A DNA stretch of 45,933 nucleotides from Candidatus Spechtbacterales bacterium (GTDB lineage Bacteria > Patescibacteriota > Minisyncoccia > Spechtbacterales > 2-12-FULL-38-22). Of this stretch, positions 19,122-43,301 are shown piece after piece. The notes below the pieces were generated by a model, which made no database searches, had not been told where the DNA came from, and saw nothing but the letters and a program-made list of their open reading frames with translations. Position numbers and translations under genes: made by a program. Position 1 is the first letter of the stretch. Every line of letters starts with the position of its first letter. The stretch covers positions 1 to 45,933 of the forward strand of contig JBBDZE010000008.1 in the NCBI GenBank assembly GCA_040900345.1, given 5' to 3'.

Positions 19122-19124
19122 GTT

Positions 19125-20311: not shown

Positions 20312-20393
20312 TCCGCCCGCGGGCCGGGGTCCTGGCCGGGGGCCTCGGCGCGACTTCCGTTCTCCGCCAGCCGGCGGACCACACAATTTTCGC

Positions 20394-20467: not shown

Positions 20468-20545
20468 CTACTTCGCTCCGCTTGTGCGGAGCTTCGAAGT
20501 GCGCAGCACAAGATGGCTGTGCCCTCCGTAGCCTTGGCGAAGGAG

Positions 20546-20621
20546 GGGCCTGTAGTTCACCTGGTAGAACACCGCATTCGCATTGCGGAGGTAGGCGGTT
20601 CGAGTCCGCCCAGGTCCACCA
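20546..20621 (+). tRNA. tRNA-Ala (anticodon CGC); CCA encoded
   Basis: GGGCCTG TA GTTC ACCTGGTA GAAC A CCGCA TTCGCAT TGCGG AGGTA GGCGG TTCGAGT CCGCC CAGGTCC A CCA. The G3:U70 Ala identity pair is present. Confidence 0.85.
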
Positions 20622-25379: not shown

Positions 25380-25386
25380 CGCGACA

Positions 25387-26427
25387 ATGCACACCCTATC
25401 GAGAAAGACATGTATGCGCTATGCAGGGCTTATCGCCGTGCTGCTTTTTGTCGTTACCGGGGTTGCCGTGGTATTGGCGAAGGCGAATTTACAAGGGAGC
25501 GCTGATGACGAGGGTCTTGCAAGAGCGCTTCCCCAGCAGATCGTATTAGAGGCCGAAACGGTCCCTGCTCTCTACCCGCATGAACATTCGCTTGAAAACT
25601 CAGTATTCGATGAGGAGCACGGTATTTGGAAATTTTCTCCTACCGAGACGTTGGAGCAGGATGTTTGGGTTACAAAATTTGAGCTGGTGCTAGAAAACGC
25701 GCCCATGACGAGCCTGCATCATGCGGGCATTACGAACCTCAATGAGCCCAATCAAGTCTGCCCCAATTCGCCGCATGAAGTGTATCGGCATGAAATTTTC
25801 TCCACGACGCCCGATATGGCAGAGGCGCCCGTGGAATTTCCTGAAGGGTACGGTCTTTTTTTGCCAAAAGGGAGCCGCCTTGTGTTGGTAACCATGCTGC
25901 ACAATCCGCTTCCGCCCTACGGGCCCGGAGAGGTGTATACGGAGGTGGCCGCAAAGGTAGTGCTTAATGTAGAGCCGGCTTCAACGGCCAGCATGCGTCC
26001 CGTTGAGTACTATCGTTTGCACATTGACGACGTTGCTTGTCCGGGGGCTGTCTACCAGGAAGTCTTTACGGTGCCAGCGGGCGCACAAGGATTTGTGAAA
26101 AGGGGAACAGAGCGGGATGGTATGCATCCTGCGCGCGTGGAACTTTCAAGAAGCGGAGAGCTGATATATGCGACAGCCCATCTCCATCCTTGGGAGGGAG
26201 GAGAAAAACTTGACGTTTTGGTAAAGGATAAAAATGTTGCAACATTTAGGCCTCGGCAACTATCAAACGAGGCGTGGTCGTGGATAATTCCGCACCAAAA
26301 AAGCGGACTGCCGCGCGTAAGGGCGGGGGATACCCTGTCTATTGAGGCTACCTACAGCAATCCTTATGGGGGAGATATTTCTGGGGCAATGGGCATGTTC
26401 GTCTTTTACTTCGCCCCCGATCCTTAG
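25387..26427 (+). CDS. PHM/DBH-like copper monooxygenase-pattern protein, paralog 2
   Basis: Start trimmed to MHTLSRKTCMRYAGLIAVLLFVVTGVAVVLA. It carries the same motif series: SLHHAGITNL, LVTMLHNPLPPYGPG, ATAHLHPWEGGE, SGAMGMFVFYFA. It aligns collinearly by eye with 24312..25379. Confidence 0.55.
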   Translation: MHTLSRKTCMRYAGLIAVLLFVVTGVAVVLAKANLQGSADDEGLARALPQQIVLEAETVPALYPHEHSLENSVFDEEHGIWKFSPTETLEQDVWVTKFELVLENAPMTSLHHAGITNLNEPNQVCPNSPHEVYRHEIFSTTPDMAEAPVEFPEGYGLFLPKGSRLVLVTMLHNPLPPYGPGEVYTEVAAKVVLNVEPASTASMRPVEYYRLHIDDVACPGAVYQEVFTVPAGAQGFVKRGTERDGMHPARVELSRSGELIYATAHLHPWEGGEKLDVLVKDKNVATFRPRQLSNEAWSWIIPHQKSGLPRVRAGDTLSIEATYSNPYGGDISGAMGMFVFYFAPDP

Positions 26428-26688: not shown

Positions 26689-28443
26689 ATGAGAGTAGGC
26701 ATCCTCATTACCGGCATTGCGCTTAGTTTGGTAGCATCCCTTACCTATTATGGTTCTGGTTTTCAACCAGGGGCGTTGCTGCTTTGGCTGAGCGCTCTTT
26801 TCCTATGCGCTGCTTTCTTTTACCTCCACGACGGGAGTACCTTCAGACTTAACATGAGAAAATCTGACGTGCTGGCACTCAGTTTGTTGGTGTTATTGTT
26901 TGCCCCTCTTTATTTTGTTCGCCTCTACACGATACCTTTTCAGATCAACACGGACGAAGTTACCATCATGTACTTCCAAAGACTAAACGTTGCCAACCCC
27001 GACATATTTGGCATCAGTAACTACCTCGATTTTCCGTCTCTTATTTTTATCGCAACCGGCTGGATGCAAGAGCTTCTCGGGGGAGTCGGTCTTTTCCATG
27101 CAAGAATAGTCCATGCCGGGTTTGGCATAACCATCATTGTTCTGGCGTATGTCTTTTTCAGACAATTCTTTCCTGTTTTTTGGGCCGCGTTTGCTGCGGT
27201 TGTTTTGGGTGCAAACCATGCCCTTCTCGCTATAAGTCGCATGGCCATGAGGGACAATTCGGGCTTGCTGGTTGGGCTGGCGTCCTTGGCCTTTCTGTAT
27301 TACGGGTATTTCCACAAGCGCACGTTGCATACATTTGTGGGAGGAGGTCTTGCGGGGCTGTGCTTTTATGTGTACTTCCCCGCACGGGCAGTTCTTTTTA
27401 TATGGCTTGCGTACTTAGTAAGCTTCGGGATGTTGCTTCTGTTGCGCCGGCGGAATATCCAATGGGTTTTCCAGGCAGGAGCGGTTGCGGTTTTAGGCTT
27501 TTTCATTGTTTCTGGGCTCCTCCATATAGCTGAATTAAAAAACACAACTGACTCCGGGGAAGATTTTTATCGCGAACGATTTCTTGTATTTGAAGAAGGA
27601 AGAATACAGCAGCAATACTGGGTCAACGCCCCGACCATTGCTGAGGGCGTAATGGTGAATATCAAAAATGGGCTAACAACGTTCAATAACAACGTGTCCG
27701 ATCAGAGCTTTATTTATCCTAATGCTAATCACGGCTTTGTTGACCCTCTCAGCGGAGTGTTGCTCTGGATTGGCATTGGAATAATTTTGGTAAAAGCGTA
27801 CCGTAACCGAGGATTTAAACAGGAAGATCTGTTTATGTTAATCGGATTTTTTTCGTTATATATATCGTATGCTTTCATCATCAATAAAAGCCCCAACTAT
27901 ACACGGCTCCTGATTATCCTCCCGTTTGTTAGTTTCTTTATTACGCAGGCGGCAAAAATTGTTTCTGAAAAAAGCAGCGAACTTTTGGGCACACTTTCGC
28001 TTTCCCGGCGCGTCAGTAGCATCAGCCTGGGCGTGCTTCTAGCCATAACAATTGTTTCTTTGAATGTACTGATTTTCGGTGATTTTGCCAGGAAAGGGTT
28101 GGCTGAAGGCAATGATGTCGGAGGTACGGCTCGATATATAGAAGCACGAAAAGATGCCCCAGGACATCAGTTTGTTTTGGTAGCCGACCAAACATATCCT
28201 TACTACTCCTGGGGAGAAAAATTCCAATGGGAAGATTGGCTGGGGTTTTTTGTCGGCGAAAACCAATCATACGCGGTGCTTGATTCTGAAAGTTTTATTG
28301 AGAAACTGCCGGATTCAAACGCCACCATTTTTATGAATGAGCTTGTATGGCTCAACTATAAACGCTCCTTAAAGGAAAAATATAAAGAAATGAAACTGCA
28401 TAATATAAAAACCGACGGAAGCCTGATAGCCATAGAGGTGTGA
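26689..28443 (+). CDS. GT-C superfamily glycosyltransferase (ArnT / PMT_2-like), polytopic
   Basis: More than 10 hydrophobic helices. The first external loop has an acidic motif (PFQINTDEVTIMYFQ) in the position of the ArnT/PMT catalytic Asp-Glu. A soluble C-terminal domain of about 130 aa follows. Confidence 0.6.
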   Translation: MRVGILITGIALSLVASLTYYGSGFQPGALLLWLSALFLCAAFFYLHDGSTFRLNMRKSDVLALSLLVLLFAPLYFVRLYTIPFQINTDEVTIMYFQRLNVANPDIFGISNYLDFPSLIFIATGWMQELLGGVGLFHARIVHAGFGITIIVLAYVFFRQFFPVFWAAFAAVVLGANHALLAISRMAMRDNSGLLVGLASLAFLYYGYFHKRTLHTFVGGGLAGLCFYVYFPARAVLFIWLAYLVSFGMLLLLRRRNIQWVFQAGAVAVLGFFIVSGLLHIAELKNTTDSGEDFYRERFLVFEEGRIQQQYWVNAPTIAEGVMVNIKNGLTTFNNNVSDQSFIYPNANHGFVDPLSGVLLWIGIGIILVKAYRNRGFKQEDLFMLIGFFSLYISYAFIINKSPNYTRLLIILPFVSFFITQAAKIVSEKSSELLGTLSLSRRVSSISLGVLLAITIVSLNVLIFGDFARKGLAEGNDVGGTARYIEARKDAPGHQFVLVADQTYPYYSWGEKFQWEDWLGFFVGENQSYAVLDSESFIEKLPDSNATIFMNELVWLNYKRSLKEKYKEMKLHNIKTDGSLIAIEV

Positions 28444-29203: not shown

Positions 29204-30328
29204 ATGCTTTATATGAAGCTGAGCGGATCCAGACGCATCCTTACTGCCGGGGTCATTCTTTTGTGTGTTCTTGACGGATTGTTGTTTGTCGTTTTGCAAC
29301 GTCTCGATAGCTCACAAGCTTCTGACGTTTCCGGTCCGCTCTACAAGACGCTTACCGTCGAACAGTTGAAGGTGTTGGCCCCCGACCCCTTTGTCTACCT
29401 GCACAACAATCTTGAAGAAATCGTACTGTATCAGGATGCGGACGGCGCTTTGCACTTAACGAGAGAAGCTTTCCGGCAAGGAATGATCGATCGATTTGGC
29501 TGCCACACGCTTGCTCACGAAATCGGCCATCACGCAGCTTCAGAGGGGCATTTTGAGCACATTGAGCTTCACATCTCTGATGCCAATATTAACTTTTGCG
29601 GAGGAGGTTTTATGCACGGGGTTGAAGGAGGACTTGCCGAATCGGGCCATCCGGGGTTTCGCGAAGATCTCTACTACTTCTGTACGCTTGCGCTTCCCGT
29701 GGCCACCACCTATGCTGCGTGCTATCACGGGGCGGGGCACGCATTTGTTGATCGTTCTCAAGACTTCCCTGAAGCGCTTCAGCTCTGTGATACCCTTATT
29801 ACGGACGAGCGCATTACCGCAACAGCTTGCTATCAGGGCGTTTTTAGTGAGCATATAGAAAGGATGCAAAGGGAAGGTGTCGAGAATAGCGAGTTGCTTG
29901 GATTCTGCGCTTCAATACGCCAAGCACTCCAAAATATCTGCGCACTAGAGCTGAATGGCCTGAACATTACCCCAGCATCGACGAATGCAGTAGTTGAAGA
30001 AACATTGAAGATTTGCGTGTACAACGACTACCCTGCAACGGTTAAGACGGGATGTTTGGAGAGCGTTTCTTGGGCTGCTGCAGATAGAGATGTATGGCAA
30101 CGAGGAAAGATTGTGCTCCTGCCTGTTATTTTCAATTTTCCTCAGGAGTTTCGGCGAGTATACATAGTGGCAACGACAAATAGGATGAAGGAGCACCTTA
30201 AGGACGGGACGGTAAATACGAATAGTTCGTTTTGTCAGGCATTTCCATCTCAGGACGATCAGCAGTTTTGCCGAGAGCGCATACTCACAAAAGACAACAG
30301 GGCTTTTACACACACCGCATTCCCATAA
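29204..30328 (+). CDS. Signal-anchored Cys-pair/His-motif helical-repeat protein (uncharacterised family, here called CHR), paralog 1
   Basis: TM anchor ILTAGVILLCVLDGLLFVVL; motifs GCHTLAHEIGHHA, CGGGFMHGVEG, ACYHGAGHAF, ACYQGVFSEH and further paired Cys. Confidence 0.8.
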   Translation: MLYMKLSGSRRILTAGVILLCVLDGLLFVVLQRLDSSQASDVSGPLYKTLTVEQLKVLAPDPFVYLHNNLEEIVLYQDADGALHLTREAFRQGMIDRFGCHTLAHEIGHHAASEGHFEHIELHISDANINFCGGGFMHGVEGGLAESGHPGFREDLYYFCTLALPVATTYAACYHGAGHAFVDRSQDFPEALQLCDTLITDERITATACYQGVFSEHIERMQREGVENSELLGFCASIRQALQNICALELNGLNITPASTNAVVEETLKICVYNDYPATVKTGCLESVSWAAADRDVWQRGKIVLLPVIFNFPQEFRRVYIVATTNRMKEHLKDGTVNTNSSFCQAFPSQDDQQFCRERILTKDNRAFTHTAFP

Positions 30329-30715: not shown

Positions 30716-31987
30716 ATGATTCGCATGTTGACCACACCACTTTTCAGCAAAACATTTTTTTCTCGAAAGAAAATAGTGATCATTGGCCTTTTCGGTATAG
30801 CGAATGTGCTCCTTTTTGTTTTGTGGTTGGCGATGGGGGCTGTTCCTGGCGAGGTGCGCGATGCAAGAAGCAGCGAGGAGCTTCCTGAAATCCAGGAGTT
30901 GCAGGACACGAACCGCAACTTTGGAGAGCTGTCGGGCTATTTCAGTGCGCTTGCAGAGAACAAAGGGGGTGGGTATGCCTTTGCCGTCTTGCGCGCGGTA
31001 GAACTTCCACCCAACATCGACACGCACCTCTTGGGGCATGTCGTGGGGGACATTTTGTACAAGCAGAAAGGCCTGGAGGGCATCAACGTGTGCACCCACG
31101 ATTTTAGAAATGCCTGCTCCCATTCTATTGTCGTTGGGTTATTTAATGAGTTTGGCGAAGGTGCATTAGATGATATCGCGGCAGCCTGTCGCCAGGCGCC
31201 GGGAGGCAAGGGAGCCTATACCATGTGCTTTCATGGTTTGGGGCATGGCGTGTTGGCCTTTGTCGAGTACGAGATGCCCGACGCCATTGCGCTGTGCGAG
31301 AAAACGGGCACCGCTCTCTATCAGAACCGTGAATACATCGAATGCGTTGGCGGCACCGTTATGGAGATGATGGCGGGCGTCCACGACCCCGAGCTCTGGA
31401 GAGAAAAGTCGAAAAAGTATTTCCGTCAGGACGACCCGTTGTACCCCTGCACGAGTGATTTCATGCCTGATGAGGCGCGGGAGACGTGTTATATGTATCT
31501 CACGCCCCATCTGCTCGAATATGTGGGCGGCAATCCTGAACATTTTACGACGGCAAATTTTCGAGACGCATTTGCCTTATGCGACAAAGCCGATCAGAGG
31601 AGGCTACAGTTGGCGTGCAAGGCAAGTTTTGGGAAAGAGTTCATCGGGCTGATAAAGAACCGGGATATCCGCGACGTTGCAAACCTCAGCGAGGAAGAAG
31701 CGCGCACAATGTACGAGTGGTGTCTTTTGGCGGGGGATCGGGCTGGCAGTGCAGCGTGTATCGATAGCGCGATGGCGTCCCTGTACTGGGGCGGCGAAAA
31801 CGATCGGTCGGGCGCTGTTCGATTTTGCGGAGTCGTTGATGATGGGGAGTTCCAAACGATCTGTTTTAACAACCTGATAGGTGCGGTGCAGTATTATGTA
31901 CATGACCGCGCATACTACGAATCATTTTGTTCGGAGCTGCCATCTGCATATACCTCGGCATGCAAAGAGCGCCTCTTACAGAACTGA
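30716..31987 (+). CDS. CHR-family protein, paralog 2
   Basis: TM anchor IVIIGLFGIANVLLFVLWLAMG; HLLGHVVGDILY, CTHDFRNACSHS, MCFHGLGHGVLAF, ECVGGTVMEMM. Eight C-x8-16-C pairs in total. Confidence 0.8.
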   Translation: MIRMLTTPLFSKTFFSRKKIVIIGLFGIANVLLFVLWLAMGAVPGEVRDARSSEELPEIQELQDTNRNFGELSGYFSALAENKGGGYAFAVLRAVELPPNIDTHLLGHVVGDILYKQKGLEGINVCTHDFRNACSHSIVVGLFNEFGEGALDDIAAACRQAPGGKGAYTMCFHGLGHGVLAFVEYEMPDAIALCEKTGTALYQNREYIECVGGTVMEMMAGVHDPELWREKSKKYFRQDDPLYPCTSDFMPDEARETCYMYLTPHLLEYVGGNPEHFTTANFRDAFALCDKADQRRLQLACKASFGKEFIGLIKNRDIRDVANLSEEEARTMYEWCLLAGDRAGSAACIDSAMASLYWGGENDRSGAVRFCGVVDDGEFQTICFNNLIGAVQYYVHDRAYYESFCSELPSAYTSACKERLLQN

Positions 31988-32132: not shown

Positions 32133-33215
32133 ATGCGCTTTTTCGCCATCGTATCGGCTCATAAATTGAACAAGAACCGCTTGGTGCTTGTTGTTGGTAT
32201 AGGGCTTGTTGTAGTGTTAGTCGGAGTTGCATCCGCATTGTATTTCGGAGAGAGGGGTTCAGATGAACAAACCAGTATTGGTGCACAAGACAGGCCGGCA
32301 AACGATTATGCCTTGGAGGCAAAATGGTGGGCAGAAAGAATCGACACGATCGGCCCCGAAGATGCATACGAAGAGTTCAAGCACGCCTATCAACAGGAAA
32401 GCTATGCGAGGCAACACACCCTTGCGCATATCTTTGGAAGGGTACTCTATGAGAAGGCTGGCATCGAAGGTTTTGCAATATGTGATAGCGCTTTTGCATT
32501 TGGTTGTTATCATAGTTTTTTTGGCACCTCTATCAAGGCTGACGGAATGAGCATTGTGAAGGAACTCGATGGAGCATGTAGGCGCAGGTGGGGAGGCGCC
32601 TACATGCCCTGTCAGCATGGTATAGGCCACGGGATACTCAGTTCGTTAGGGGCAAATCACCTCCAAGACGCTCTCGATGTATGCTCAACAATCATGGAAC
32701 AGCCTACCGGGGGGTGTGCGAGCGGTATCTTTATGGAATATAATTTCAGGACGATGAGTGCTGTGTGGGGGGAAGGGGAGAGAACATTAGTACGTCCCTT
32801 ACGGGATGAGCGTGACGTGCATATGCCATGTGCGCTTTTACCGCAGCAATATACATCAGCATGTTATTATGAACAGCCACAGTGGTGGGAGTTTGTTCTT
32901 GGCGAAGATTACGAGCGGAGTAAAGCTCTCTGTGCGGAAATTACCGAGGAGGATGCTCGAGGAGCTTGCTTTCGTGGGGTTGGGCACTACAGAGCGAATA
33001 ATGGATACGACATAGAAAAAGTGCACGATGTATGCGGCACTATTGCCGCGGGGATGCCAGAGCAGCTTTTTTGCTATCAAGGCGCGGCATGGCTTTTTCT
33101 TGCAAGACAAAACGGGGGAGCGGATACAGCTCGTGCCCTATGCGAGGCCATCAAGAGAGAAGAAGACCGAGCGGTATGCTCGGCGAGTATAGAAGGTAAC
33201 ATATTTAGATTATGA
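32133..33215 (+). CDS. CHR-family protein, paralog 3
   Basis: TM anchor LVLVVGIGLVVVLVGVASALYF; HTLAHIFGRVLY, GCYHSFFG, PCQHGIGHGILS, GCASGIFMEY. Seven C-x7-12-C pairs (14 Cys). Confidence 0.8.
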   Translation: MRFFAIVSAHKLNKNRLVLVVGIGLVVVLVGVASALYFGERGSDEQTSIGAQDRPANDYALEAKWWAERIDTIGPEDAYEEFKHAYQQESYARQHTLAHIFGRVLYEKAGIEGFAICDSAFAFGCYHSFFGTSIKADGMSIVKELDGACRRRWGGAYMPCQHGIGHGILSSLGANHLQDALDVCSTIMEQPTGGCASGIFMEYNFRTMSAVWGEGERTLVRPLRDERDVHMPCALLPQQYTSACYYEQPQWWEFVLGEDYERSKALCAEITEEDARGACFRGVGHYRANNGYDIEKVHDVCGTIAAGMPEQLFCYQGAAWLFLARQNGGADTARALCEAIKREEDRAVCSASIEGNIFRL

Positions 33216-34363
33216 GCAAGACGATACGCACCATTGCTGTTGCGTTGCAAAAAAAAGTGATTTTTATGGCGAGGGGGGAAAAGAGTTTTGTGATAGCTGG
33301 TCTTTTTTTGGCAGGGTTGTTCGTGGCAGGAATAATCGTTATGGTTGACGGCTCGCAACCCCGCAGCCAAAGCGCGCCTTCGCAAGAAGAATTTCTCGAG
33401 ACAATGGAGGCGCAGTATCCTTCGGTTTTTGCCGGTATACGAGACAAGTTATCAGAGGTTGTTGAGGACTACGGTATAGGCGGGGCCCTTGCAATTTCGC
33501 TGAAGGCTTTTGGCGCGGGGGATATTTCTATGTACGAGTGCCATCTCCTTTTTCATACCATCGGACACAGTGCGGAGATTTATTACAACAGCGATGACAT
33601 GAAAATCGTGCAGCACGATAGCAACAACTGCGAGTTCGGCTATCGTCACGGCGTGGAAGCTCAAATCGTGGCACGAAATAGTGAACATTTTCAAGAAGAA
33701 TTACACCGTTTTTGTGACACCCTCATAGCCCATACCTCCTATCCAGATTGCTATCATGGCGCGGGACACGGCTTGGTGAAAGGAACACTCGATGTCCAAA
33801 AGACGCTCGAGCTCTGCGATTCGCTCCAAGAAGGGCGTTCCCGGTCAGTGTTTAGCTGTTATACCGGAGCTTTTAGCGAGGTCACGAATATCGTGGGAGG
33901 AGTGGACAGCGAGACGGGGTACCGGCTTACGGGAACTTCGCCGCTTACGCTCGGGGGACTAGAGGTGATGGAATACTGCGCTTCATTTACGGGAGAGGAG
34001 CATCAGCAGGCATGTGCTTACGAACTGAATGGATTAACGTTTTCTCTTAATACAACCGAGGAGCATCTTCGAAACGAATTATCGCGATGCGCGCAAGGAA
34101 GCTACGCCGAAGACCTCAAAGAAGCCTGTACGTACAGTGTTTCAGCCGTATTTGCCCAGCACATGCTGCCAAGAACGCAGTCGCTTTCGCCTTCGCATGA
34201 ACTGCTAGAAACCCTCACGCCGGGCCTGCGAGAAGCGTACATCATGGGTTCGGGTACGGAGATGAAGCAATTTATTATCAGCGGACAGAACCTAGACTGG
34301 AATGTCTTTTGCAATTTTTTTGAAGAGGATGAGCACGCAACGTGTGTCGCCATATTTGAGTAA
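33212..34363 (+). CDS. CHR-family protein, paralog 4
   Basis: ATGA start/stop overlap with the upstream gene. TM anchor FVIAGLFLAGLFVAGIIVMV; ECHLLFHTIGHSAEIYY, CEFGYRHGVEA, DCYHGAGHGLVKG, SCYTGAFSEV. Confidence 0.8.
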   Translation: MSKTIRTIAVALQKKVIFMARGEKSFVIAGLFLAGLFVAGIIVMVDGSQPRSQSAPSQEEFLETMEAQYPSVFAGIRDKLSEVVEDYGIGGALAISLKAFGAGDISMYECHLLFHTIGHSAEIYYNSDDMKIVQHDSNNCEFGYRHGVEAQIVARNSEHFQEELHRFCDTLIAHTSYPDCYHGAGHGLVKGTLDVQKTLELCDSLQEGRSRSVFSCYTGAFSEVTNIVGGVDSETGYRLTGTSPLTLGGLEVMEYCASFTGEEHQQACAYELNGLTFSLNTTEEHLRNELSRCAQGSYAEDLKEACTYSVSAVFAQHMLPRTQSLSPSHELLETLTPGLREAYIMGSGTEMKQFIISGQNLDWNVFCNFFEEDEHATCVAIFE

Positions 34364-34368: not shown

Positions 34369-34776
34369 ATGCAGAAGAACAGTATACAGCACAGGGCAAC
34401 CAAAGGAGGCGTCGCAGGAATTGTTCTTGTGTGCATTCTTTTGGGCGGAACGTACGTTGTGATTGATCGACAAGAGGCGACGGTCGGGAAGGAGGACAAG
34501 CATGCCACTCATATCGTACGGGTTACGGATACAGCATTTGTGCCCGCAGAGCTGCATGTCCGTTGGGGAGATACGGTGCAGTTTATCACCGAGCGCGGTA
34601 CCGCGTTCTGGCCCGCCTCTGACCTTCACCCCATACACGAAGACTACCCCGATTTTGACGCACGAAGGCCGATTCCCCCAAATGAATCATGGACCTTTAC
34701 ATTTACCCAGAAGGGCAGTTGGAGCTACCACAATCACTTGCACCCTTTCTTTAGGGGCAGGATAGTTGTTGAATAG
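34369..34776 (+). CDS. Signal-anchored stand-alone cupredoxin-like domain protein with a His cluster and no ligand Cys (here called HCu), copy 1
   Basis: TM anchor VAGIVLVCILLGGTYVVI; FVPAELHVRWGDTVQFITERGTAFWPASDLHPIHEDYPDFD...PNESWTFTFTQKGSWSYHNHLHPFFRGRIVVE. Confidence 0.8.
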   Translation: MQKNSIQHRATKGGVAGIVLVCILLGGTYVVIDRQEATVGKEDKHATHIVRVTDTAFVPAELHVRWGDTVQFITERGTAFWPASDLHPIHEDYPDFDARRPIPPNESWTFTFTQKGSWSYHNHLHPFFRGRIVVE

Positions 34777-34783
34777 GCGAGGC

Positions 34784-36001
34784 ATGCGTTGGAAACACAT
34801 CTCGATAAAGAAAAAAGGGTTATGGTTTGTCCTTGGCGTTGAGGCCGTCTTTGTTTTGGCGCTTGTTCTCGTTGGGGTGTCTTTCCCTATAGATAAGGAA
34901 AAGACGGCAGCGGAAGAGGCATCCTTGGCAATATACGCAGAGGGAGTGATTGAGGCATGCAGCAGCGTTCGGTACCGGCCGGCCTGCTACGATGAAGAAA
35001 TTCCCAAGCTCATGGATGCTCTGTCCATGGAAGAAGCATTTGCTGTAACCAAGCTCGTGCAAGAACAGGATGAGTCGTACTGGTACTGCCATGTGTTGGC
35101 CCATGCATTAGGAGCGCGCGAAACGGCAAAAGATCCTTCCCGGTGGATAGACGTCATTGCGCGGGTGCCAAGTCACATGTGTTCAAATGGCGGCATCCAT
35201 GGAGCGTTTCAAGAACGGTTTCGATCAGAAACGCTTGCACCAGAAGAAGTAGAGCGGGTATTGCCGGATCTGCAAAAGGCATGCGAGCCGCGTCCCTCAT
35301 GGAGTCCCACCAGCATGGAGCAGGCAACCTGCTACCATGCGCTCGGTCATCTCGCCATGTATATTACCGGAGGAGATATTCACCGGGCGGTGGCAGTATG
35401 CGAGGATGTTGCACGGCAGACGAGTGCGGATTTTACCCCGTTGTGCTACGACGGGGCCTTTATGCAGATTTTTCAACCGCTTGAGCCGGAAGACTTTGCT
35501 CTTATTGAGGGCAAACAGCCCGCCAAAGAAGAACTTGCGTCATATTGCCATCAATTCTCAGGGGCGCAGTACGCGTCCTGTTGGAGCGAAGGGTGGCCGC
35601 TCTATTCGGCCGAAATACAGAATGCTGACGGCCTGACAGCATTCTGTTCGGCCGTTCCTGAAGGACCCGATCGAAACCTGTGCTTTACCGACATATTTTA
35701 CGTGCTGACGGCTCAGTTCGAGTTCGATCATGCCAGTATCGTGGGATTGTGTAGCAGCATGCCGGAAGCGCGTAAGGGGCAATGTTTTGCCAGCGCTGCA
35801 TCGCGCTTTATTGAGACGGATGCACAGCTTACCGATCGGGCAGTAGCGCTTTGTGCGGCAGCAACCCGAGAGACGGAGCAAAGAAAATGCTACGAAGAAC
35901 TCGTATTTTACGCCTCATATAATTTTAAAAAAGGGTCAAAGGAATTCGAGCATCTCTGTGGCAGCCTTCCGATGTCTTATCGAGAAGGGTGCTATCGTTA
36001 G
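34784..36001 (+). CDS. CHR-family protein, paralog 5
   Basis: ATG lies 8 nt after the upstream stop (a TTG at 34766 is also possible). TM anchor LWFVLGVEAVFVLALVLVGV; YCHVLAHALGARE, MCSNGGIHGAF, TCYHALGHLAMY, LCYDGAFMQIF, plus 5 further Cys pairs. Confidence 0.8.
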   Translation: MRWKHISIKKKGLWFVLGVEAVFVLALVLVGVSFPIDKEKTAAEEASLAIYAEGVIEACSSVRYRPACYDEEIPKLMDALSMEEAFAVTKLVQEQDESYWYCHVLAHALGARETAKDPSRWIDVIARVPSHMCSNGGIHGAFQERFRSETLAPEEVERVLPDLQKACEPRPSWSPTSMEQATCYHALGHLAMYITGGDIHRAVAVCEDVARQTSADFTPLCYDGAFMQIFQPLEPEDFALIEGKQPAKEELASYCHQFSGAQYASCWSEGWPLYSAEIQNADGLTAFCSAVPEGPDRNLCFTDIFYVLTAQFEFDHASIVGLCSSMPEARKGQCFASAASRFIETDAQLTDRAVALCAAATRETEQRKCYEELVFYASYNFKKGSKEFEHLCGSLPMSYREGCYR

Positions 36002-36004: not shown

Positions 36005-37537
36005 ATGAATAACAGAAAGAAAAAAAACGAGTTAGGGAAGAAAATGGAGACGGCGCTGAAGCGCTATAAGCGTTGGGGCGTGGCTGTGAGCATTATTTTG
36101 GGAGTGGCTAGTGGTGCTGCGCTTATTTTTGCAGCACCATTCTGGGGGGCGCAGGAATATCACGTTGAGCTGCGCGAAGATGGGTTCTATCCCGAGGAGC
36201 TTTCGGTGCAGGTAGGCGATACCGTAACCTTTAGCACAAGCAGGGGGCAGCTCTTTTGGCCTGCTTCGGCTCTTCATCCAGATCATTCTATTTATCCTGA
36301 GTTTGATCCTCAGCAGCCGATTAACCCCGGAAACTCCTGGAGTTTTCGCTTTGAAAAAGAAGGGAGATGGAAGTATCATGATCATCTCCATCCCAATTAT
36401 TCAGGAGTCATCACCGTAGGCACCTCTGGCAGCAGTATCGTGGCGCTCGCCCAGAATTGTGTCGAGGTCTCTCGGGACCAAAAAATGGCCTGCTGGGACC
36501 AGCAGCTGGAGGCGACGCTTAAGGCAGAAGGATTGGACGCAGCATTTGATTTATTTGTTCATCTCTACCAAACAGAGCCTGATATTCCTAAGGCCTGCCA
36601 CGAATGGGGGCACGTTTTGGGGGAGGCCGCGTACGATTTATATATGAGCGACGAAGATTTTAAACTCGTTCCAGAAACGGCCTACTGCGGATACGGTTTT
36701 TATCATGGATTTTTGGAAGAATTTGTCCGGGATACGGGAGGAAATTTCGCTGAGATACAGCAGTTCTGCACCTCAGTGTCGGAAGAACTAGGCGAGCAGC
36801 TCTTCTCAGTATACCGAAACTGTGTGCACGGCGTAGGTCACGGGACGACCGCCTGGATTTTGGAGGACCCTTCGTATTGGGGTGACTTTCAAAAGGTGGC
36901 AGATGCAGGTCTTGGCGTTTGTGAAGATACCTTTGGAGGAACAAATGAGATCCGTGACTGCTATGACGGCGTATTCAATGAGCTCTATCTCGATGTACTG
37001 AATAGTCAGTACCGGTTCAACTTTACGCAGTTTAAAACGATGGGCGATCCGTTTTGGTATTGCAGAAGGGTAGCTGAGCGGCACAAAGAGTCGTGTTACT
37101 TTGAGTTTATTGGTCTTACCTATACTTTTTTCAACTATGACGTGAAGGCAGCAACGCGTTATTTTCTAGACACGGTGGATAATCTGGAAGAGTACGGAGA
37201 CACGACCATAGGAAAGCTTGCAGCTGATTATATGCAATTCGACATTGTCAAAGATAGTCATGAACCAAACGTTGAGGCATGCAGAATGGTCCCCGGATAT
37301 CTGTTCCAGGATTGTTTCTTTGGTATTACAAACGGTTTTATACAGCATGGGGAGCCGGAAAATATGCACGAGAAAGGGCTGCATTTTTGCGGGGAGGGCT
37401 ATTTAACAGCGAGAGAAAAAACACTGTGCTACCAGAATATGTTCGGGCTTCTACGGGCAAACTATAGCACAGAAAAGCTTAGGCAGGTTTGTTCAACGGT
37501 AGGCGCAGAAGTGTGGCGCTCATACTGTCCACTCTAA
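36005..37537 (+). CDS. Fusion protein: signal anchor plus HCu cupredoxin-like domain plus CHR module (paralog 6)
   Basis: GFYPEELSVQVGDTVTFSTSRGQLFWPASALHPDHSIYPEFDPQQPINPGNSWSFRFEKEGRWKYHDHLHPNYSGVITVG is followed by ACHEWGHVLGEAAYDLY, AYCGYGFYHGFLEEF, NCVHGVGHGTTAW, DCYDGVFNELY... Confidence 0.85.
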   Translation: MNNRKKKNELGKKMETALKRYKRWGVAVSIILGVASGAALIFAAPFWGAQEYHVELREDGFYPEELSVQVGDTVTFSTSRGQLFWPASALHPDHSIYPEFDPQQPINPGNSWSFRFEKEGRWKYHDHLHPNYSGVITVGTSGSSIVALAQNCVEVSRDQKMACWDQQLEATLKAEGLDAAFDLFVHLYQTEPDIPKACHEWGHVLGEAAYDLYMSDEDFKLVPETAYCGYGFYHGFLEEFVRDTGGNFAEIQQFCTSVSEELGEQLFSVYRNCVHGVGHGTTAWILEDPSYWGDFQKVADAGLGVCEDTFGGTNEIRDCYDGVFNELYLDVLNSQYRFNFTQFKTMGDPFWYCRRVAERHKESCYFEFIGLTYTFFNYDVKAATRYFLDTVDNLEEYGDTTIGKLAADYMQFDIVKDSHEPNVEACRMVPGYLFQDCFFGITNGFIQHGEPENMHEKGLHFCGEGYLTAREKTLCYQNMFGLLRANYSTEKLRQVCSTVGAEVWRSYCPL

Positions 37538-39060
37538 TGGGGAACCCTTGGATGCGAATGCGCTTATTCCCAACAGCATTGGCAAAAATACGTACACGAG
37601 GAAGGGGTACCGCTCTTGCTACGCTAGGGGTTTTTGTTCTTGCCCTTCTGGTAGTTGCTTTTGCGCTCATTGCTCGACACGCTACGCCTACGGTGTCCCT
37701 CTCTCCTGAGGGCTTTGTGCCTCGTGAACTGACTATTCAGCTTGGCGATACCGTGACGTTTGTCAATAAAAGCAATCGCCCCATCTGGCCCGCTTCCAAC
37801 ATCCATCCCGACCACTCCATCTACCCAGAGTTTGACCCCAAGCGTCCCTTAGAACCCGGCGAAGAATGGTCGTTTACCTTCACCAAAGAAGGAAGGTGGC
37901 GCTTCCATGACCATCTTAACTCGCTCCATGAAGGAGTAGTTACGGTGGGGGATGGCACGGCGACACGAGAGGGGGAGGATGGCCGGTGCGATGACGCCGC
38001 CAATAAAGTGGCGTGCTGGGGCGAGCGCGTTGAGTATGCTCTCGCCGGTAATAATGTAGAAGCAGCTTTCAATGTGGTAGCCGAGCTCTATGAAAAAGAG
38101 CCCCAGCTTGCCGGAGGCTGTCATGGCTATGCGCATCTCATTGGCGAAAAAGCATATGACCTTTTCTCTCAAGGGTATGACTTTGAGCTGACGCCAAAGA
38201 CGGCATACTGCGGGTACGGCTTTTTCCACGGCTTCATGGAAACGTTGTTGCATACGACGGGGGATCTTGCGGAGGCGCGTGCCTTTTGTGCCTACGTTAA
38301 TGAGAAGCTTCGCTACGTATCAAGCGGAGCGGCCAGCGCATGTAACCACGGCATCGGGCACGGGGCGGTAGATGGCAGCGATCCGCGGGCGTGGGGAGAT
38401 CCCTATGCCATGATGAAGCCGGGGATGGACTTGTGCCGTGCGCTCGCAAAAGAGGACAAGCCCTCGTATGGCAGCCCGCTGTATCTGTGCATCACGGGGG
38501 TCTATAACGCCCTTGAAATACTTTCAATGGATGATCGATACCGCCTTGAAGCTTTACGAGAAGACCCGTTTGCTTTTTGCGAGCGAGAACAGGTTGCGTA
38601 TCAAGAAGGATGCTACACCAACATGCTACCCGCGCTCTTGCGCCTAACGAATAACGACGTTATGCAAAGCGCCCGCCTCGTCGAGGCCATACCCGAGGAA
38701 GGCGACAGCTACGAAATCCGTAGCCTCGTTATACTTTCGCTTACCCATGAATATATTCGTCTGCACATGAACGACGCAAACTACACAGAAGAGGGGATCG
38801 CTCTGTGTCGGCAGCTTGCCGATCGCTCACACCTTCCGTGTATTCGCGGTCTCTCCGGCGGGCATATGAAATATGGAAAGCCGGGGGAAGAATACGTAAA
38901 GATGATTGCTTTTTGCACAACGCCAACCATGCGCCCCGACGAGCGCGATGCCTGTTTTGAATATGTCTTTCCGTTATTGCGTCTTTGGTACCCGCAAGGA
39001 AAAGTGGAAGAAATCTGCACCCGTGTCGAACTGCCCTATCGTTCGTACTGCCCCCGATAG
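37537..39060 (+). CDS. Fusion protein: signal anchor plus HCu domain plus CHR module (paralog 7)
   Basis: TAATG stop/start overlap at 37535-37539. GFVPRELTIQLGDTVTFVNKSNRPIWPASNIHPDHSIYPEFDPKRPLEPGEEWSFTFTKEGRWRFHDHLNSLHEGVVTVG is followed by GCHGYAHLIGEKAYDLF, AYCGYGFFHGFMETL, ACNHGIGHGAVDG, LCITGVYNALE... Confidence 0.85.
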   Translation: MGNPWMRMRLFPTALAKIRTRGRGTALATLGVFVLALLVVAFALIARHATPTVSLSPEGFVPRELTIQLGDTVTFVNKSNRPIWPASNIHPDHSIYPEFDPKRPLEPGEEWSFTFTKEGRWRFHDHLNSLHEGVVTVGDGTATREGEDGRCDDAANKVACWGERVEYALAGNNVEAAFNVVAELYEKEPQLAGGCHGYAHLIGEKAYDLFSQGYDFELTPKTAYCGYGFFHGFMETLLHTTGDLAEARAFCAYVNEKLRYVSSGAASACNHGIGHGAVDGSDPRAWGDPYAMMKPGMDLCRALAKEDKPSYGSPLYLCITGVYNALEILSMDDRYRLEALREDPFAFCEREQVAYQEGCYTNMLPALLRLTNNDVMQSARLVEAIPEEGDSYEIRSLVILSLTHEYIRLHMNDANYTEEGIALCRQLADRSHLPCIRGLSGGHMKYGKPGEEYVKMIAFCTTPTMRPDERDACFEYVFPLLRLWYPQGKVEEICTRVELPYRSYCPR

Positions 39061-39161: not shown

Positions 39162-39707
39162 ATGCGAGAAGGAGCACTGTTTCTTATCACCGTTACCCTT
39201 ATGACCATTGGCACAGCGCTCATGGTGCTTCCTCAGGGGGTATTTGCTCACGGCACCGGCGCCTCCTTCGAAGCAGACGTCGATCAGTACCGGATTGATG
39301 TCGGCTATGAGCCGGAACAGATGAGCGTCGACATCGCTACGCTCTTTGATTTTTTACTGCAGGATCGGCAGACGGGCGAAGACGTAGCCTTTAGCGACGT
39401 GTGGGTGCGCATCTCCCAAGGCAACCAAACAGTGTTTGCGAGCGGGGTTGCACGTCCAAGGTTTGGGACCACCACGTTAACCTACCTCTTCCCACGAGCA
39501 GGGAGCTACGAGCTGTCGGTTCGGTTCCAAAATCAGGGAGAAGCGATTGTTGAAAGTACCTTCCCCCTTACCGTCAAGGAGGGTGTCAGCGATATCAAAA
39601 CACTATCAGAAAAGAAATCTACGATTCTCCCCGTGACACTTGCTTTTGCCGGTGGGGCAGTGATCGCAGGGGCAGCCACCCTGTTTATGCGACGCCCCAA
39701 GAAATAG
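39162..39707 (+). CDS. Exported beta-rich protein with a predicted N-terminal His after signal cleavage and a C-terminal TM anchor (uncharacterised)
   Basis: The signal peptide ...LMVLPQGVFA|HGTGASFEADVDQYRIDVGYEP would leave His as residue 1. The body has alternating beta-strand-like sequence. The C-terminus is ILPVTLAFAGGAVIAGAATLFMRRPKK. Confidence 0.7.
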   Translation: MREGALFLITVTLMTIGTALMVLPQGVFAHGTGASFEADVDQYRIDVGYEPEQMSVDIATLFDFLLQDRQTGEDVAFSDVWVRISQGNQTVFASGVARPRFGTTTLTYLFPRAGSYELSVRFQNQGEAIVESTFPLTVKEGVSDIKTLSEKKSTILPVTLAFAGGAVIAGAATLFMRRPKK

Positions 39708-39725: not shown

Positions 39726-40175
39726 ATGCATACAAAAAATCTTGCTATTATTGGTCTTCTCATTCTGATTGCAACGGCTATCGCTCTTGGGGTGGTTCTT
39801 ATGGTGCGTCCTGAGCAGAGCGGGGACCTCAGCGCAGGCAAGGATGCCGATCAGCAAACACGAGAGCGTCACCCAGGCTTTGCAATTGATGCCTCCGCCG
39901 CGCAGGAACGTATTCGCATTACCCAGGAGGGATTTTTTCCGGAGGAGATTACCGTACAGCGAGGAGATAGTGTTGTCTGGATAAATGAAGCGAGCGAGTA
40001 TCGCTGGCCCGCCTCGAACCTGCATCCTACCCATTCAATCTATGCCGAATTCGATCCACTTGAGCCGCTTGCTCCCGGAGAGAGTTGGAGCTTTCGGTTC
40101 GAACAAGAGGGAAGCTGGCAGTACCATGACCATTTGCGTCCCAGTAAGGAGGGGGTAATCATTGTGGAGGGGTAG
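39726..40175 (+). CDS. Stand-alone HCu cupredoxin-like protein, copy 2
   Basis: SD-like AAGGGGG upstream. TM anchor LAIIGLLILIATAIALGVVLMV; GFFPEEITVQRGDSVVWINEASEYRWPASNLHPTHSIYAEFDPLEPLAPGESWSFRFEQEGSWQYHDHLRPSKEGVIIVE. Confidence 0.8.
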   Translation: MHTKNLAIIGLLILIATAIALGVVLMVRPEQSGDLSAGKDADQQTRERHPGFAIDASAAQERIRITQEGFFPEEITVQRGDSVVWINEASEYRWPASNLHPTHSIYAEFDPLEPLAPGESWSFRFEQEGSWQYHDHLRPSKEGVIIVEG

Positions 40176-40278: not shown

Positions 40279-40806
40279 ATGAAAAAGGAAAACTTATTTT
40301 TTGCCGTTGCTATACTTGTTTTGGCGGGGGTTGCCGTTGCGCTAGGATACGCGATTTATCAAACAAGCGTGGGAGGAAATAACGCCACGGATGAAGACGC
40401 TCCTTCCGGTAATGGCCAAACGAACGAAACGCTTACCGATGAAGAAATTGTTCTTCAGCCGCCCCAGGAAGACGCAAGTCCCGAAGAAAAAGATGCTCAT
40501 TTTTCCGCGGCTCAACGTATTGCGGTGGAAGGAAATTCGGTAACGCTTACTGAGTGCAAGGCCGATCCGCTCGTGTTAGCGCTGAGCATGGATGACCGCA
40601 TTACCCTGGTCAATGAAAGCGACGTTGCGATAGAAATAAGTCGTGATGCAGGCGTATTTCTGTACCGTGTGCCGGCAAACGACTCCCGAACAGTTGAGAC
40701 GGACTTCGCAGTACACGGGAATGGCCTGTATGGTTACCGTTGTGGGGCGGAGGAAAATGATGCGTTCGGTGATGGAGTGGGCGGTTTCTTCTTGATTGGA
40801 GGATAA
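40279..40806 (+). CDS. Signal-anchored protein with an acidic linker and a degenerate cupredoxin-like beta-sandwich (no HPxH/HxH motifs)
   Basis: TM anchor LFFAVAILVLAGVAVALGYAIY; EGNSVTLTECKADPLVLALSMDDRITLVNESDVAIEI...YRVPANDSRTVETDF...GLYGYRCG resembles the Cupredoxin_1-type strand pattern. Confidence 0.55.
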   Translation: MKKENLFFAVAILVLAGVAVALGYAIYQTSVGGNNATDEDAPSGNGQTNETLTDEEIVLQPPQEDASPEEKDAHFSAAQRIAVEGNSVTLTECKADPLVLALSMDDRITLVNESDVAIEISRDAGVFLYRVPANDSRTVETDFAVHGNGLYGYRCGAEENDAFGDGVGGFFLIGG

Positions 40807-40855: not shown

Positions 40856-41247
40856 GGGGAGGGCGAGCCAAAGGCATTGCCAGGACAGTGAGTTGATTTT
40901 TCTTACGGTAGGACTGACGCAGAGCTATGTCTGCACCTGAAATATGCTATACTCTCAGAAAACAGCCATGAGACAGCAGGTGCTTGATATATGCATGGGG
41001 CGGTTGCGGTAGGTTGTGGGGCTCAACCGGCCCTTGTGTATGCTTCTAAAATGCATCGCATCGGTATCAAGGAGGAGGGCTTTTGCCTTCCGACAGTACC
41101 GTCTTGCGAGGGGATTCAACTACCTTTGTCCACGAAGGGGCGCGTCTACTGGCCGGCTCCCATGTGCACCCTGTTCATCAAATTTTCCTGGAGCCTGACT
41201 CGCGCACGTCGTGCCGTGCGGGTGCGCATACCATCTCCTAAATCCTT

Positions 41248-42786
41248 ATGCGTCCTATCTTTTTTCTTGCCAGCCTGAGCCTGTTCCTGGGTATGCCCCT
41301 TGTTGCCGCAGCGCATACCGGCGACACCGAAGGGGCGGTTATCCATATGGACGAAAGCGGGTATCGTCCCGCAGACGTTACCATACCGCAAGGGGAAACG
41401 GTAACATTCGAAAACGTCGCCGGACACTCCTGGCCGGCTTCCAATATCCACCCCACGCACCGGGCGTATCCTGAGTCGGGACTCGACCAATGCGGTACCA
41501 GCGAAGAAGAAAAAGCATTTGACGCGTGCCGCGCGCTTGCGCCAGGAGAGTCCTATACCTTTCGGTTCGTGCATGCCGGCGAGTGGCGCTACCATGATCA
41601 CCTTGATCCGCGCCTCAAGGGCACGATAATCGTTACCGCCGTTGAAGGGTTCGCCGAGGCACAGAGCACCGAGGACGAAGCGAAGCACAGCATCTGGCGG
41701 GCAGTAGGGGACTTTTTGGGTGGCACGTGGAGCTGGCTTACGGGTCTTTTTACGGAAGAACCAGATACGCCTGAAGGCATCACCTATCGGGAAGATATTA
41801 CGAGGGATGCCGATATCTTAGCGGGGGGCGCGGGAAGTGAGAGTATACTGTACTCGTACGTTCGAAAGTTCGGACCAGCGGCGGCCACAAAGCGTGCCAA
41901 CGAGCTGCAGGCCCACTACGGGAGCTGCCATCAAGCGGCGCATGATATCGGTAAGTACGCCTATCTGCTGGAAGGAGCGAAGGCGTTTCAGTCCTGTAGC
42001 GCCGAGTGTCATTCGGGCTGCTATCACGGGGCCACCGAAAATTACTTCCGCGACCAGGGCACGGCGAACCTTATCCAGAATATAAGCGTCATATGCAGCA
42101 GCGACCTCAATCCCTTTTTCTCTCATCAGTGCGTGCATGGTATCGGGCATGGGCTGATGGCCTGGGCAGATTATGACATTTTCGAAGCACTCGAAAACTG
42201 TAGCAGGTTGCCCAACTTACGCGAGTCCTGCTACACGGGTGCCTATATGGAAAACATCGTTGGCGGCCTTGCTTTCGATCAGGGACACATTACCGAGTAT
42301 CTAAGCGACGATCCCCACATGCCATGTAATGTTGTTGATGAGCCGTATAAATCTTCGTGCTACTTTTATCAAACATCCCGGATGGTGCAGCTGTTTGCGG
42401 GGGACTTTGGCAAGGTTGCAGACGCGTGTCTTGAGGCGCCAAAACAGTACCACGCTGTGTGCTTTCAGAGTATGGGGCGCGATGCAAGCGGACGGCACCC
42501 CGATCCGTCCGACGCCATTGCCGCATGCCGAAATGCGCCGGCCGGGACGAGCCAAACACAGTGCTTCATTGGGATTGCGCAAAATGCGCTGTGGGATGAA
42601 AGCGGGCAGGACGACGCCCTCGCATTGTGCGGTGCATTTGCAAATACCGAAGAGGAGGCGGTTTGTTACGGGACGCTTTTTGCGCGCGCCCCCGATGTTT
42701 TTTCAAGCGCAAGCAAACAGCGTGCCTTTTGCGATAAAATGAAACAGCCCTACCGCGACCAGTGTTATGCGCAGGCAGAGATTTGA
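41248..42786 (+). CDS. Secreted fusion protein: signal peptide plus HCu domain (with a Cys-containing insert) plus CHR module (paralog 8)
   Basis: Signal MRPIFFLASLSLFLGMPLVAAA|HTGD. GYRPADVTIPQGETVTFENVAGHSWPASNIHPTHRAYPE...GESYTFRFVHAGEWRYHDHLDPRLKGTIIVT is followed by SCHQAAHDIGKYAYLLE, CSAECHSGCYHGATENY, QCVHGIGHGLMAW, SCYTGAYMENI... Confidence 0.85.
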   Translation: MRPIFFLASLSLFLGMPLVAAAHTGDTEGAVIHMDESGYRPADVTIPQGETVTFENVAGHSWPASNIHPTHRAYPESGLDQCGTSEEEKAFDACRALAPGESYTFRFVHAGEWRYHDHLDPRLKGTIIVTAVEGFAEAQSTEDEAKHSIWRAVGDFLGGTWSWLTGLFTEEPDTPEGITYREDITRDADILAGGAGSESILYSYVRKFGPAAATKRANELQAHYGSCHQAAHDIGKYAYLLEGAKAFQSCSAECHSGCYHGATENYFRDQGTANLIQNISVICSSDLNPFFSHQCVHGIGHGLMAWADYDIFEALENCSRLPNLRESCYTGAYMENIVGGLAFDQGHITEYLSDDPHMPCNVVDEPYKSSCYFYQTSRMVQLFAGDFGKVADACLEAPKQYHAVCFQSMGRDASGRHPDPSDAIAACRNAPAGTSQTQCFIGIAQNALWDESGQDDALALCGAFANTEEEAVCYGTLFARAPDVFSSASKQRAFCDKMKQPYRDQCYAQAEI

Positions 42787-42878: not shown

Positions 42879-43301
42879 GTGATGTCTATCAAAACCATTA
42901 GTGTTGTCATTATTGTTGGCGTCGTAGCGTTGGTTTTGGCATGGGCGTTTTGGTTGAAGGGCGATACACCCGCCGAAGATGCTACCGACACCAACCAAGA
43001 GGAAACCATTGCCGGCGCCGAAAACAGCTCGATTATTATTCGCATGACGAGCAGGGGGTTTGAACCCAGCGAAGCCACCATCAAAAAGGGCGACTCGGTT
43101 GTCTGGATGAATGCCGACGACGAAGACCGCTGGCCGGCATCCGATACCCATCCTACTCACACGATCTATCCGGGCTTTGATCCGCAACAGCCCATTGCAG
43201 AGGGCGAAAGCTGGATTTTTGTTTTTGACCGTGTCGGCACGTGGGGCTTCCATGAGCATCTCAATCCAAGTTTGGGCGGCACAATAACGGTAACGGACTA
43301 A
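42879..43301 (+). CDS. Stand-alone HCu cupredoxin-like protein, copy 3
   Basis: TM anchor VVIIVGVVALVLAWAFWL; GFEPSEATIKKGDSVVWMNADDEDRWPASDTHPTHTIYPGFDPQQPIAEGESWIFVFDRVGTWGFHEHLNPSLGGTITVT. Confidence 0.8.
   Translation: MMSIKTISVVIIVGVVALVLAWAFWLKGDTPAEDATDTNQEETIAGAENSSIIIRMTSRGFEPSEATIKKGDSVVWMNADDEDRWPASDTHPTHTIYPGFDPQQPIAEGESWIFVFDRVGTWGFHEHLNPSLGGTITVTD

Follow-up and report, generated by a model that had tools for sequence, protein, structure and literature searches.

The window analysed here is the whole stretch of 45,933 nucleotides (nt) covering positions 1 to 45,933, and thus all, of contig JBBDZE010000008.1 (assembly GCA_040900345.1) from the metagenome-assembled genome of a Candidatus Spechtbacterales bacterium (Patescibacteriota). 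It encodes six copies of a membrane-anchored, outward-facing domain with the fold of the cupredoxins, in which the ligands of the type-1 (T1) copper site have been lost. According to the alignments, the T1 Cys is replaced by Asp (in some members by Asn or Glu) flanked on both sides by invariant His, and a set of the form H41-P-x-H44 ... H75-D76-H77 stands in place of the blue-copper ligands; residues are numbered on the domain of copy 1, nt 34507-34773. The domain is genetically coupled to a Cys/His-rich helical domain, and the family to which it belongs is widespread, uncharacterised and mis-annotated.

The conserved His/Asp set is likely to be a metal site. In the function proposed, copper would be held by His and Asp in one or two non-blue, type-2-like sites with N/O ligands, located on the face formed by strands 4 and 7 and in the former T1 pocket; in the two-site version these would be a remnant of the T1 pocket (H41 and D76) and a three-His site (H44, H75 and H77). 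The domain would be a module of a cell-surface system for copper capture, copper transfer or copper-dependent redox chemistry. Its partners would be a helical domain with five invariant His, fused or adjacent, and in many genomes also a protein of the 181-amino-acid (aa) type with His at the mature N-terminus. That the metal is copper is an even call, and the composite picture of a surface-anchored, non-blue copper module working with partners is held with moderate confidence; we infer the identity of the metal, the geometry of the site and the direction in which metal or electrons would move. A precedent is FtrB, a Cys-less cupredoxin that requires Asp118 to bind Cu(II) (PMC11966278).

Six cupredoxin-fold domains lacking the type-1 ligands

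The six copies lie on the forward strand, three of them stand-alone and three at the N-terminus of larger proteins, as had been proposed by an earlier, sequence-only reading of this DNA. The first stand-alone copy (34369..34776, 135 aa) comprises an N-terminal membrane anchor and the cupredoxin-like domain (family profile E=3.2e-38), with the WPAS..HP.H motif at nt 34609-34638 and H-N-H at nt 34729-34737. Copy 2 (39726..40175, 149 aa, E=3e-41) carries YHDHL and is named hypothetical protein WD850_00735 by NCBI, and copy 3 (42879..43301, 140 aa, E=7.9e-40) has a GTG start and carries FHEHL. The first fusion (36005..37537, 510 aa) is formed by an anchor, the cupredoxin-like domain (36155-36421) and a Cys/His-rich all-helical domain (36425-37534). 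The second (37537..39060, 507 aa from its ATG) has the same two domains, the cupredoxin-like one at 37687-37950; its mechanically called open reading frame (ORF) begins at TTG 37489, and the ATG shares one base with the preceding stop codon. The third fusion, copy 6 (41248..42786, 512 aa, E=1.7e-29), comprises a signal peptide, the cupredoxin-like domain (41332-41640) and the Cys/His-rich helical domain. This copy has a private 14-residue insertion with two Cys (ESGLDQCGTSEEEKAFDAC) at nt 41455-41520, between the HPxH loop and the FD motif, which is probably a disulfide-stapled loop beside the His cluster. As a separate observation, L051:5836-6288, a stand-alone homologue whose record is labelled archaeon, has a shorter two-Cys insertion in the same place.

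A six-frame scan of the whole window with the family profile returned exactly these six ORFs (E=3e-41 to 1.7e-29) plus a seventh copy (E=1.4e-5), a startless and truncated relic at 41050..41238 on the forward strand (..GGLLPSDSTVLRGDSTTFVHEGARLLAGSHVHPVHQIFLEPD..) that matches profile positions 9-59 only. The relic ('...SHVHPVHQIFLEPD') sits in the 'intergenic' gap just upstream of the gene at 41248 and suggests recent turnover of paralogues. The earlier count of six thus holds for intact domains and is slightly low for the window, the relic having been missed. The 175-aa ORF at 40279-40806 was considered as a further copy and rejected: it gave no match to the family profile at E<=10 and lacks the His set.

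The domains comprise about 89 residues and are 41-51% identical to copy 1, and on this sequence evidence their likeness is one of homology and not of chance. Residues W35, P36, A37, S38, H41, P42, H44, Y47, F50, D51, F64, F66, G70, W72, H75, H77, L78, G84 and V88 are invariant in the six copies. Position 76 is Asn in copy 1, Glu in copy 3 and Asp in the remaining four. Conserved Cys in the domain number zero, as claimed before for the ectodomain; copy 1 has one Cys in its membrane anchor and copy 6 has the two of its insertion. The domains face outward, since N-terminal to each of them lies either a signal peptide or a basic stretch with a hydrophobic helix; the location outside the cell, also claimed before, extends to the family, where 318/329 proteins have an N-terminal hydrophobic segment.

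The domain has a cupredoxin fold, a Greek-key beta-sandwich. A profile of the six copies matched amicyanin in the PDB at E=1.7e-10. An AlphaFold2 (AF2) model built from the six sequences alone (predicted local distance difference test, pLDDT, 78.8) superposes on amicyanin and plastocyanin, as identified by Foldseek against the PDB (E ~5e-8, template modelling score, TM, 0.78-0.84), and the fold expected by the sequence-only reading was thus recovered. The model of the mature 36005 fusion, from an alignment of 150 sequences, reached pLDDT 93.3 with a predicted TM (pTM) of 0.90 and places an all-helical domain after the same beta-sandwich. In both models confidence is lowest in the His loop (pLDDT 55-67), a pattern that would be compatible with a loop becoming ordered upon metal binding. 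Family models score low: Pfam PF13473 (Cupredoxin_1) gave 19.3-25.3 bits for the six copies (E=1.6e-5 to 1.2e-3), below the gathering threshold of 27, and a precomputed PF13473 match is present in many family members outside the window; Pfam Cu-oxidase_3 gave 17 bits, below its cut-off of 21; and the NCBIfam amicyanin and plastocyanin models gave 13-29 bits against cut-offs of 88-110. Matches of the N-terminal half of the consensus to SH3 domains in the PDB (E ~2e-4) were discarded as a chance likeness of the type 'ELTIKKGDxxTxxNK'.

The fate of the T1 ligands was read from two alignments. The alignment to amicyanin, gapless over Y74-G84 of the domain, pairs H75 with His91, D76 with the ligand Cys92 and H77 with Thr93; further on, the ligands His95 and Met98 meet the variable positions 79 and 82, respectively, and Pro96 meets P80. 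Among proteins that retain a T1 site, the closest relatives are multi-repeat ones such as P0008, every repeat of which reads 'H-T-V ... C-x2-H-P-x-M', and these give the same C-terminal mapping, with the T1 Cys on D76, the His on position 79 and the Met on position 82. For the N-terminal T1 His the two alignments differ: the P0008 repeats place it on H41, gapless to the shared F-D motif, whereas amicyanin His53 is placed on S38. Weak co-variation of positions 40 and 83 favours H41 (mutual information over 443 domains, dominated by the split between stand-alone and fused subfamilies), and H41 is probably the retained N-terminal His of the T1 site.

Conservation was counted in 126 domains from clusters at <=50% identity. 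H75 and H77 are each kept in 122/126, and the four His H41, H44, H75 and H77 range from 122 to 126 of 126, so that their invariance, proposed from the six copies, holds across the lineage. Position 76 is Asp in 112 domains, Asn in 10 and Glu in 2. Positions 79 and 82 are variable, and in the window copies they hold H/R/N/H/N/D and F/K/L/Y/H/L, respectively. The earlier proposal of a Cys-to-His swap is therefore only partly borne out, the four His being conserved and the Cys position itself holding Asp, Asn or Glu and not His. In both alignments H75 and H77 stand at Cys-1 and Cys+1, which contradicts the replacement of the Cys by a His cluster, and the nearly invariant Asp76 speaks against a site made of His only. 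By the same alignments the C-terminal His and Met ligands of the T1 site are lost. A blue (type-1) electron carrier is excluded on sequence grounds, since the domain lacks the Cys ligand and positions 79 and 82 vary.

Distribution and partner proteins

A single-sequence homologue search identified 4 proteins only, and profile searches were needed. The profile search of 1.84 billion representatives gave 269 clusters at E<=1e-30, weaker matches grading into ordinary cupredoxins, and a word-indexed search gave 919 proteins at E<=1e-10. The names of the 919 are 'plastocyanin' (JGI) and 'cupredoxin domain-containing protein' or 'hypothetical' (NCBI). A scan for WPAS[ND]xHP[TIS]H, with one genome per species, yielded at least 594 confirmed loci. 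Among the loci listed, and judged by record title, most belong to Patescibacteria of many classes; the others are Actinomycetes, Gaiellaceae, Rubrobacteraceae, Dehalococcoidia and Chloroflexota, with one record labelled archaeon. In hundreds of species, genes bearing the names 'plastocyanin' or 'cupredoxin' thus encode proteins that cannot act as blue-copper carriers. Literature searches for a Cys-less, His-cluster cupredoxin of this kind returned only FtrB ('Cup-II') and engineered azurins, and no description of the family was found.

The partner identified most often is the helical domain, which comprises about 350-400 residues (about 370 in the fusions), is all-helical in the AF2 fusion model and is extracytoplasmic. 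The window contains eight paralogues of it, the three fused ones and five stand-alone ones at 29204-30328, 30716-31987, 32133-33215, 33212-34363 and 34766-36001, all on the forward strand (E=1e-120 to 1e-133, with a profile built from these same paralogues), and they make up a substantial fraction of the proteins predicted to be secreted in the window. Five His are invariant in 8/8 paralogues (H-x3-H, a lone H and C-x-H-G-x-G-H), together with about 12-16 conserved Cys. The gene at 34766-36001 overlaps the end of copy 1, so that the two together correspond to a fusion in split form. The profile of this domain gave no match in the PDB or in Pfam, the C-terminal domain remaining without a Pfam match even at E<=10. 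Foldseek on the fusion model returned cupredoxins only, plus a poor match to EfeO 7wgu_B (433 columns, TM 0.18-0.23, root-mean-square deviation 24 Å).

The coupling was examined in 78 related loci, with partners sought within 6 kb. The helical domain is fused or within that distance in 67/78 loci and neither in 11/78; fusions occur in 48 and separate helical-domain genes in 53, with 205 helical-domain ORFs in all. The cupredoxin-like domain therefore very probably works with the helical domain. Tandem forms occur in other genomes, namely Cup-Cup in P0007 (227 aa) and [Cup-helical]x2 in P0005 and P0006 (959 and 936 aa), all His being kept in both copies; such architectures are compatible with domains working in pairs.

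In three actinobacterial loci (Actinomycetes, Gaiellaceae) a helical paralogue carries a mono-haem cytochrome c at its N-terminus (CxxCH; PF13442 E=1.9e-8), which suggests that the helical domain exchanges electrons. These genes (L022:9980-11407, L027:5984-7453 and L044:5534-6991, reverse strand) adjoin a pair formed by a helical-domain gene and a cupredoxin-like gene. The helical domain probably represents a new metallo- or redox protein outside the cytoplasm and may be a more novel object than the cupredoxin-like domain itself. It is a large domain, lacking Pfam and PDB matches, that occurs joined to the cupredoxin-like domain in many bacteria and, in these three loci, to cytochrome c.

The second partner is the 181-aa protein encoded at 39162..39707 on the forward strand, 19 nt upstream of copy 2, with a signal peptide and a C-terminal membrane anchor. 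Its signal peptide ends in ..VFA|H, which leaves an invariant His at the mature N-terminus, and a Glu at +7 and a Trp are also invariant. Homologues were identified in 16/78 loci, usually adjoining a stand-alone copy, and in L067:5230-6261 the protein is fused to the cupredoxin-like domain. It gave no match to Pfam DUF1775 or in the PDB. In general architecture it is like YcnI (DUF1775) of Bacillus subtilis, a mono-histidine-brace protein that binds Cu(II) (PMC8424229): both have a signal peptide, a mature N-terminal His, conserved Glu and Trp, a beta-rich domain and a C-terminal membrane helix. They differ in that no sequence homology is detectable and the Glu is at +7 in the 181-aa protein and at +23 in YcnI.

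The remainder of the window comprises housekeeping genes and six tRNAs in the first 22 kb, and from about 24 kb nearly all genes are secreted or membrane-anchored and lack a Pfam family. The tRNA genes lie at 16235-20618, around a gene of the CCA-adding enzyme/poly(A) polymerase family (17418-19121). The rejected 175-aa ORF (40279..40806, forward strand) encodes a secreted protein with homologues in 14/78 loci and a strand pattern that is loosely cupredoxin-like. A polytopic membrane protein of 584 aa (26689..28443, forward strand) is a relative of PMT-type (GT-C) glycosyltransferases; its homologue in L022 matches PF02366 at E=1.7e-7. Two PMT-type membrane glycosyltransferases flank the actinobacterial gene set of cytochrome c-helical and cupredoxin-like genes, and the similarity of the 26689-28443 protein to those in L022:6265-9980, L027:2295-5984 and L044:3712-5523 is so extreme (E ~1e-106 to 1e-119) that it suggests transfer of the whole cluster between phyla.

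Finally, two secreted paralogues about 9 kb upstream (24312-25379 and 25384-26427, forward strand) share LHHA ... MLHNP ... AHLHxWEGG ... GAMGM, that is, HH, H, HxH and M. They match Pfam SURNod19 weakly (E=0.004 and 0.034), the first also Cu2_monoox_C (E=0.28), and these Nod19-like proteins gave no match in the PDB. By their motifs they may be PHM-like type-2 copper monooxygenases.

Nature of the probable metal site

The assignment of the His follows a parallel with the multicopper oxidases (MCOs). These enzymes carry, as their L3 and L4 signatures, HPxH in strand 4 and H-[C]-H-L in strand 7; E. coli CueO has LHPFHIHG and AHCHLLEH where the family consensus has LHPTHxIY and YHDHLxP. When the consensus segment was searched against the PDB, only chains of MCOs and nitrite reductases were retrieved, all weakly (E=0.02-3), and the segments in register with WKYHDHL were WYHSHL (laccase domain 1), FYHGHL and FHCHI (ascorbate oxidase) and FIFHDHV (two-domain laccase). 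In CueO the second His of HPxH is a ligand of the type-2 (T2) copper, and by analogy H44 would occupy that position. H75 and H77 appear in the alignments to occupy the positions, Cys-1 and Cys+1, of the ligands of the MCO type-3 (T3) coppers. In CotA, the His on either side of the T1 Cys serve as ligands of the two T3 coppers (PMC2944330). H44, H75 and H77 would thus lie on the face used by MCOs and nitrite reductases for inter-domain copper, and H41 and D76 would point toward the former T1 pocket.

Several points weigh against this assignment and against the copper module as a whole. The family profile gave no significant alignment to E. coli CueO with hmmsearch, so that the MCO parallel stands on the motifs and the weak PDB matches. 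A convergence of H41, H44, H75, D76 and H77 would be expected only by analogy with the equivalent positions of plastocyanin, MCOs and nitrite reductase. Sites of three or four His plus Asp equally suit Zn, Ni or Fe. The likeness of the 181-aa protein to YcnI is one of architecture, and the PHM/Nod19-like genes give weak matches only (E=0.004-0.3) and are absent from the 78 related loci. Apparently many Patescibacteria have few known copper enzymes, and the need for a large family of copper-handling paralogues is unexplained.

The first alternative is that the His/Asp cluster binds a non-redox or non-copper metal (Zn, Ni, Fe or Mn) for capture or sensing at the cell surface. The classic Zn geometry of carbonic anhydrase likewise combines a strand HxH with a His contributed by an adjacent segment. 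The cupredoxin domains of FtrB and EfeO come from iron-uptake systems, crystals of FtrB held Mn at the acidic site, and proteins with an N-terminal His bind Ni and other metals besides Cu, according to PMC12537917. However, the scaffold and the motifs are those of copper proteins, the ExE-type Fe motif of FtrB was not seen by inspection among the conserved positions of the family (FtrB being compared by description), and no Ftr1/EfeU-like permease, ZnuABC or similar system was noticed among the genes of the window. Another metal in such a role is considered unlikely, although it keeps an appreciable share of the probability.

The second alternative goes beyond the copper module in that each domain would be half of an inter-domain multicopper site. 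Two domains, or one domain and the five His of the helical domain, would build a bi- or trinuclear His-ligated centre of the kind found in MCOs and nitrite reductases, and hence an oxidase lacking T1 copper; the paralogues could come together as homo- or hetero-oligomers or in the tandem form. The positions of H44, H75 and H77 at those of MCO T2 and T3 ligands are consistent with it, as are the existence of P0007, P0005 and P0006, the six paralogues at one locus, the pTM of the fusion model, which implies a fixed domain interface, and the cytochrome c on the actinobacterial helical paralogues, which suggests a role of the helical domain in electron transfer. Opposed to this are the presence of only one of the two strand-4 His of the MCO HxH pair (position 46 is Ile, Leu or Val in 108/126 domains), the lack of a significant sequence relationship to MCO domains, and the low pLDDT of the His loop, which argues against its burial in the modelled fusion interface. 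Such a centre is regarded as quite unlikely. A shade more doubtful again is its boldest form, in which a free-standing MCO half with the T1-His+3, Cys-1 and Cys+1 ligands would, by analogy, assemble into a new surface multinuclear copper oxidase of ultra-small bacteria. MCOs and copper nitrite reductases have a postulated single-domain ancestor, and this form, if true, would be a living analogue of it.

The third alternative involves no metal, the His and Asp residues being a ligand-binding, catalytic or interaction patch on a surface protein for attachment to the host. Genomes of the Candidate Phyla Radiation (CPR) expand families of surface proteins, the paralogue expansion and the relic suggest rapid turnover, and the neighbouring PMT-like glycosyltransferase hints at modification of surface proteins. 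Yet four His and an acidic residue that are invariant across phyla on a metal-binding scaffold are typical of a metal site and atypical of fast-evolving adhesins, and the partner proteins also carry invariant His sets, so that this reading is judged very improbable.

An ordinary plastocyanin/amicyanin-type blue-copper carrier, such as the NirK donors that papers on CPR bacteria invoke for proteins so annotated (PMC5581439, PMC12931201), agrees with the database names (JGI 'plastocyanin' in many members, NCBI 'cupredoxin domain-containing protein') but is refuted at the sequence level by the missing Cys and the unconserved T1 His and Met positions, scores far below the NCBIfam cut-offs and sits beside no nirK or respiratory genes in the window, and is left with next to no probability. 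If any of those CPR NirK-donor proteins belong to the family, they would need re-examination.

Comparison with known cupredoxins

The non-blue copper module proposed here is closest in general fold to amicyanin and plastocyanin ('Cup-III'), with which the family shares the Greek-key sandwich, the G-D-T-V, P-G-x-S/T-[WY]-x-F and G-x-I-x-V motifs and, with amicyanin, the length of the loop between strands 7 and 8. The differences are a 7-residue insertion (F-W-P-A-S-x-L) before the N-terminal His, the exchange of the Cys for Asp (in some members Asn or Glu) and three extra invariant His, H44, H75 and H77.

The closest case on record is FtrB ('Cup-II') of the FtrABCD iron transport system (PDB 8VUK), for which Asp118 and His121 have been put forward as Cu(II) ligands and binding is abolished by the D118A substitution (PMC11966278). 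FtrB and the family are alike in being naturally Cys-less cupredoxins with an Asp and a nearby His in the C-terminal region as proposed Cu(II) ligands. By its description FtrB differs in having D-x2-H, an ExE/E iron site and ftrABCD operons, whereas the family has H-D-H plus HPxH and other partners, and 8VUK was absent from the best 50 Foldseek and the best 60 sequence matches.

EfeO is alike in its organisation, an extracytoplasmic protein with a cupredoxin ('Cup-I') followed by an all-helical metal-binding M75 domain. The helical domain of EfeO has an HxxE motif. That of the family lacks a match to Pfam Peptidase_M75, superposes poorly on EfeO in the Foldseek comparison given above and conserves different residues (five His and about 16 Cys).

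Azurin C112D is an engineered protein that keeps both T1 His, and it differs from the family, which does not conserve the T1 His on the C-terminal side and has gained three other His. With its engineered 'type 2' and 'type zero' sites it is a Cys-to-Asp cupredoxin still binding Cu(II), according to the work as cited in PMC11966278.

The MCO domains (CueO, CotA, laccase, ascorbate oxidase and the two-domain laccases) and the copper nitrite reductases share with the family the His around the Cys position and the HPxH of strand 4. The MCOs differ in having four His-rich signatures (HxHG, HxH, HxxHxH and HCHxxxHxxxxM) distributed over at least two domains, whereas the family has HPxH and H-D-H only in a single domain, and also in the T1 Cys and the second strand-4 His of the HxH pair, both absent here. 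As a natural Cys-to-Asp cupredoxin with His at the inter-domain positions of the MCOs, the family would allow one to test directly how sites of type 2 and type 3 originated on this fold.

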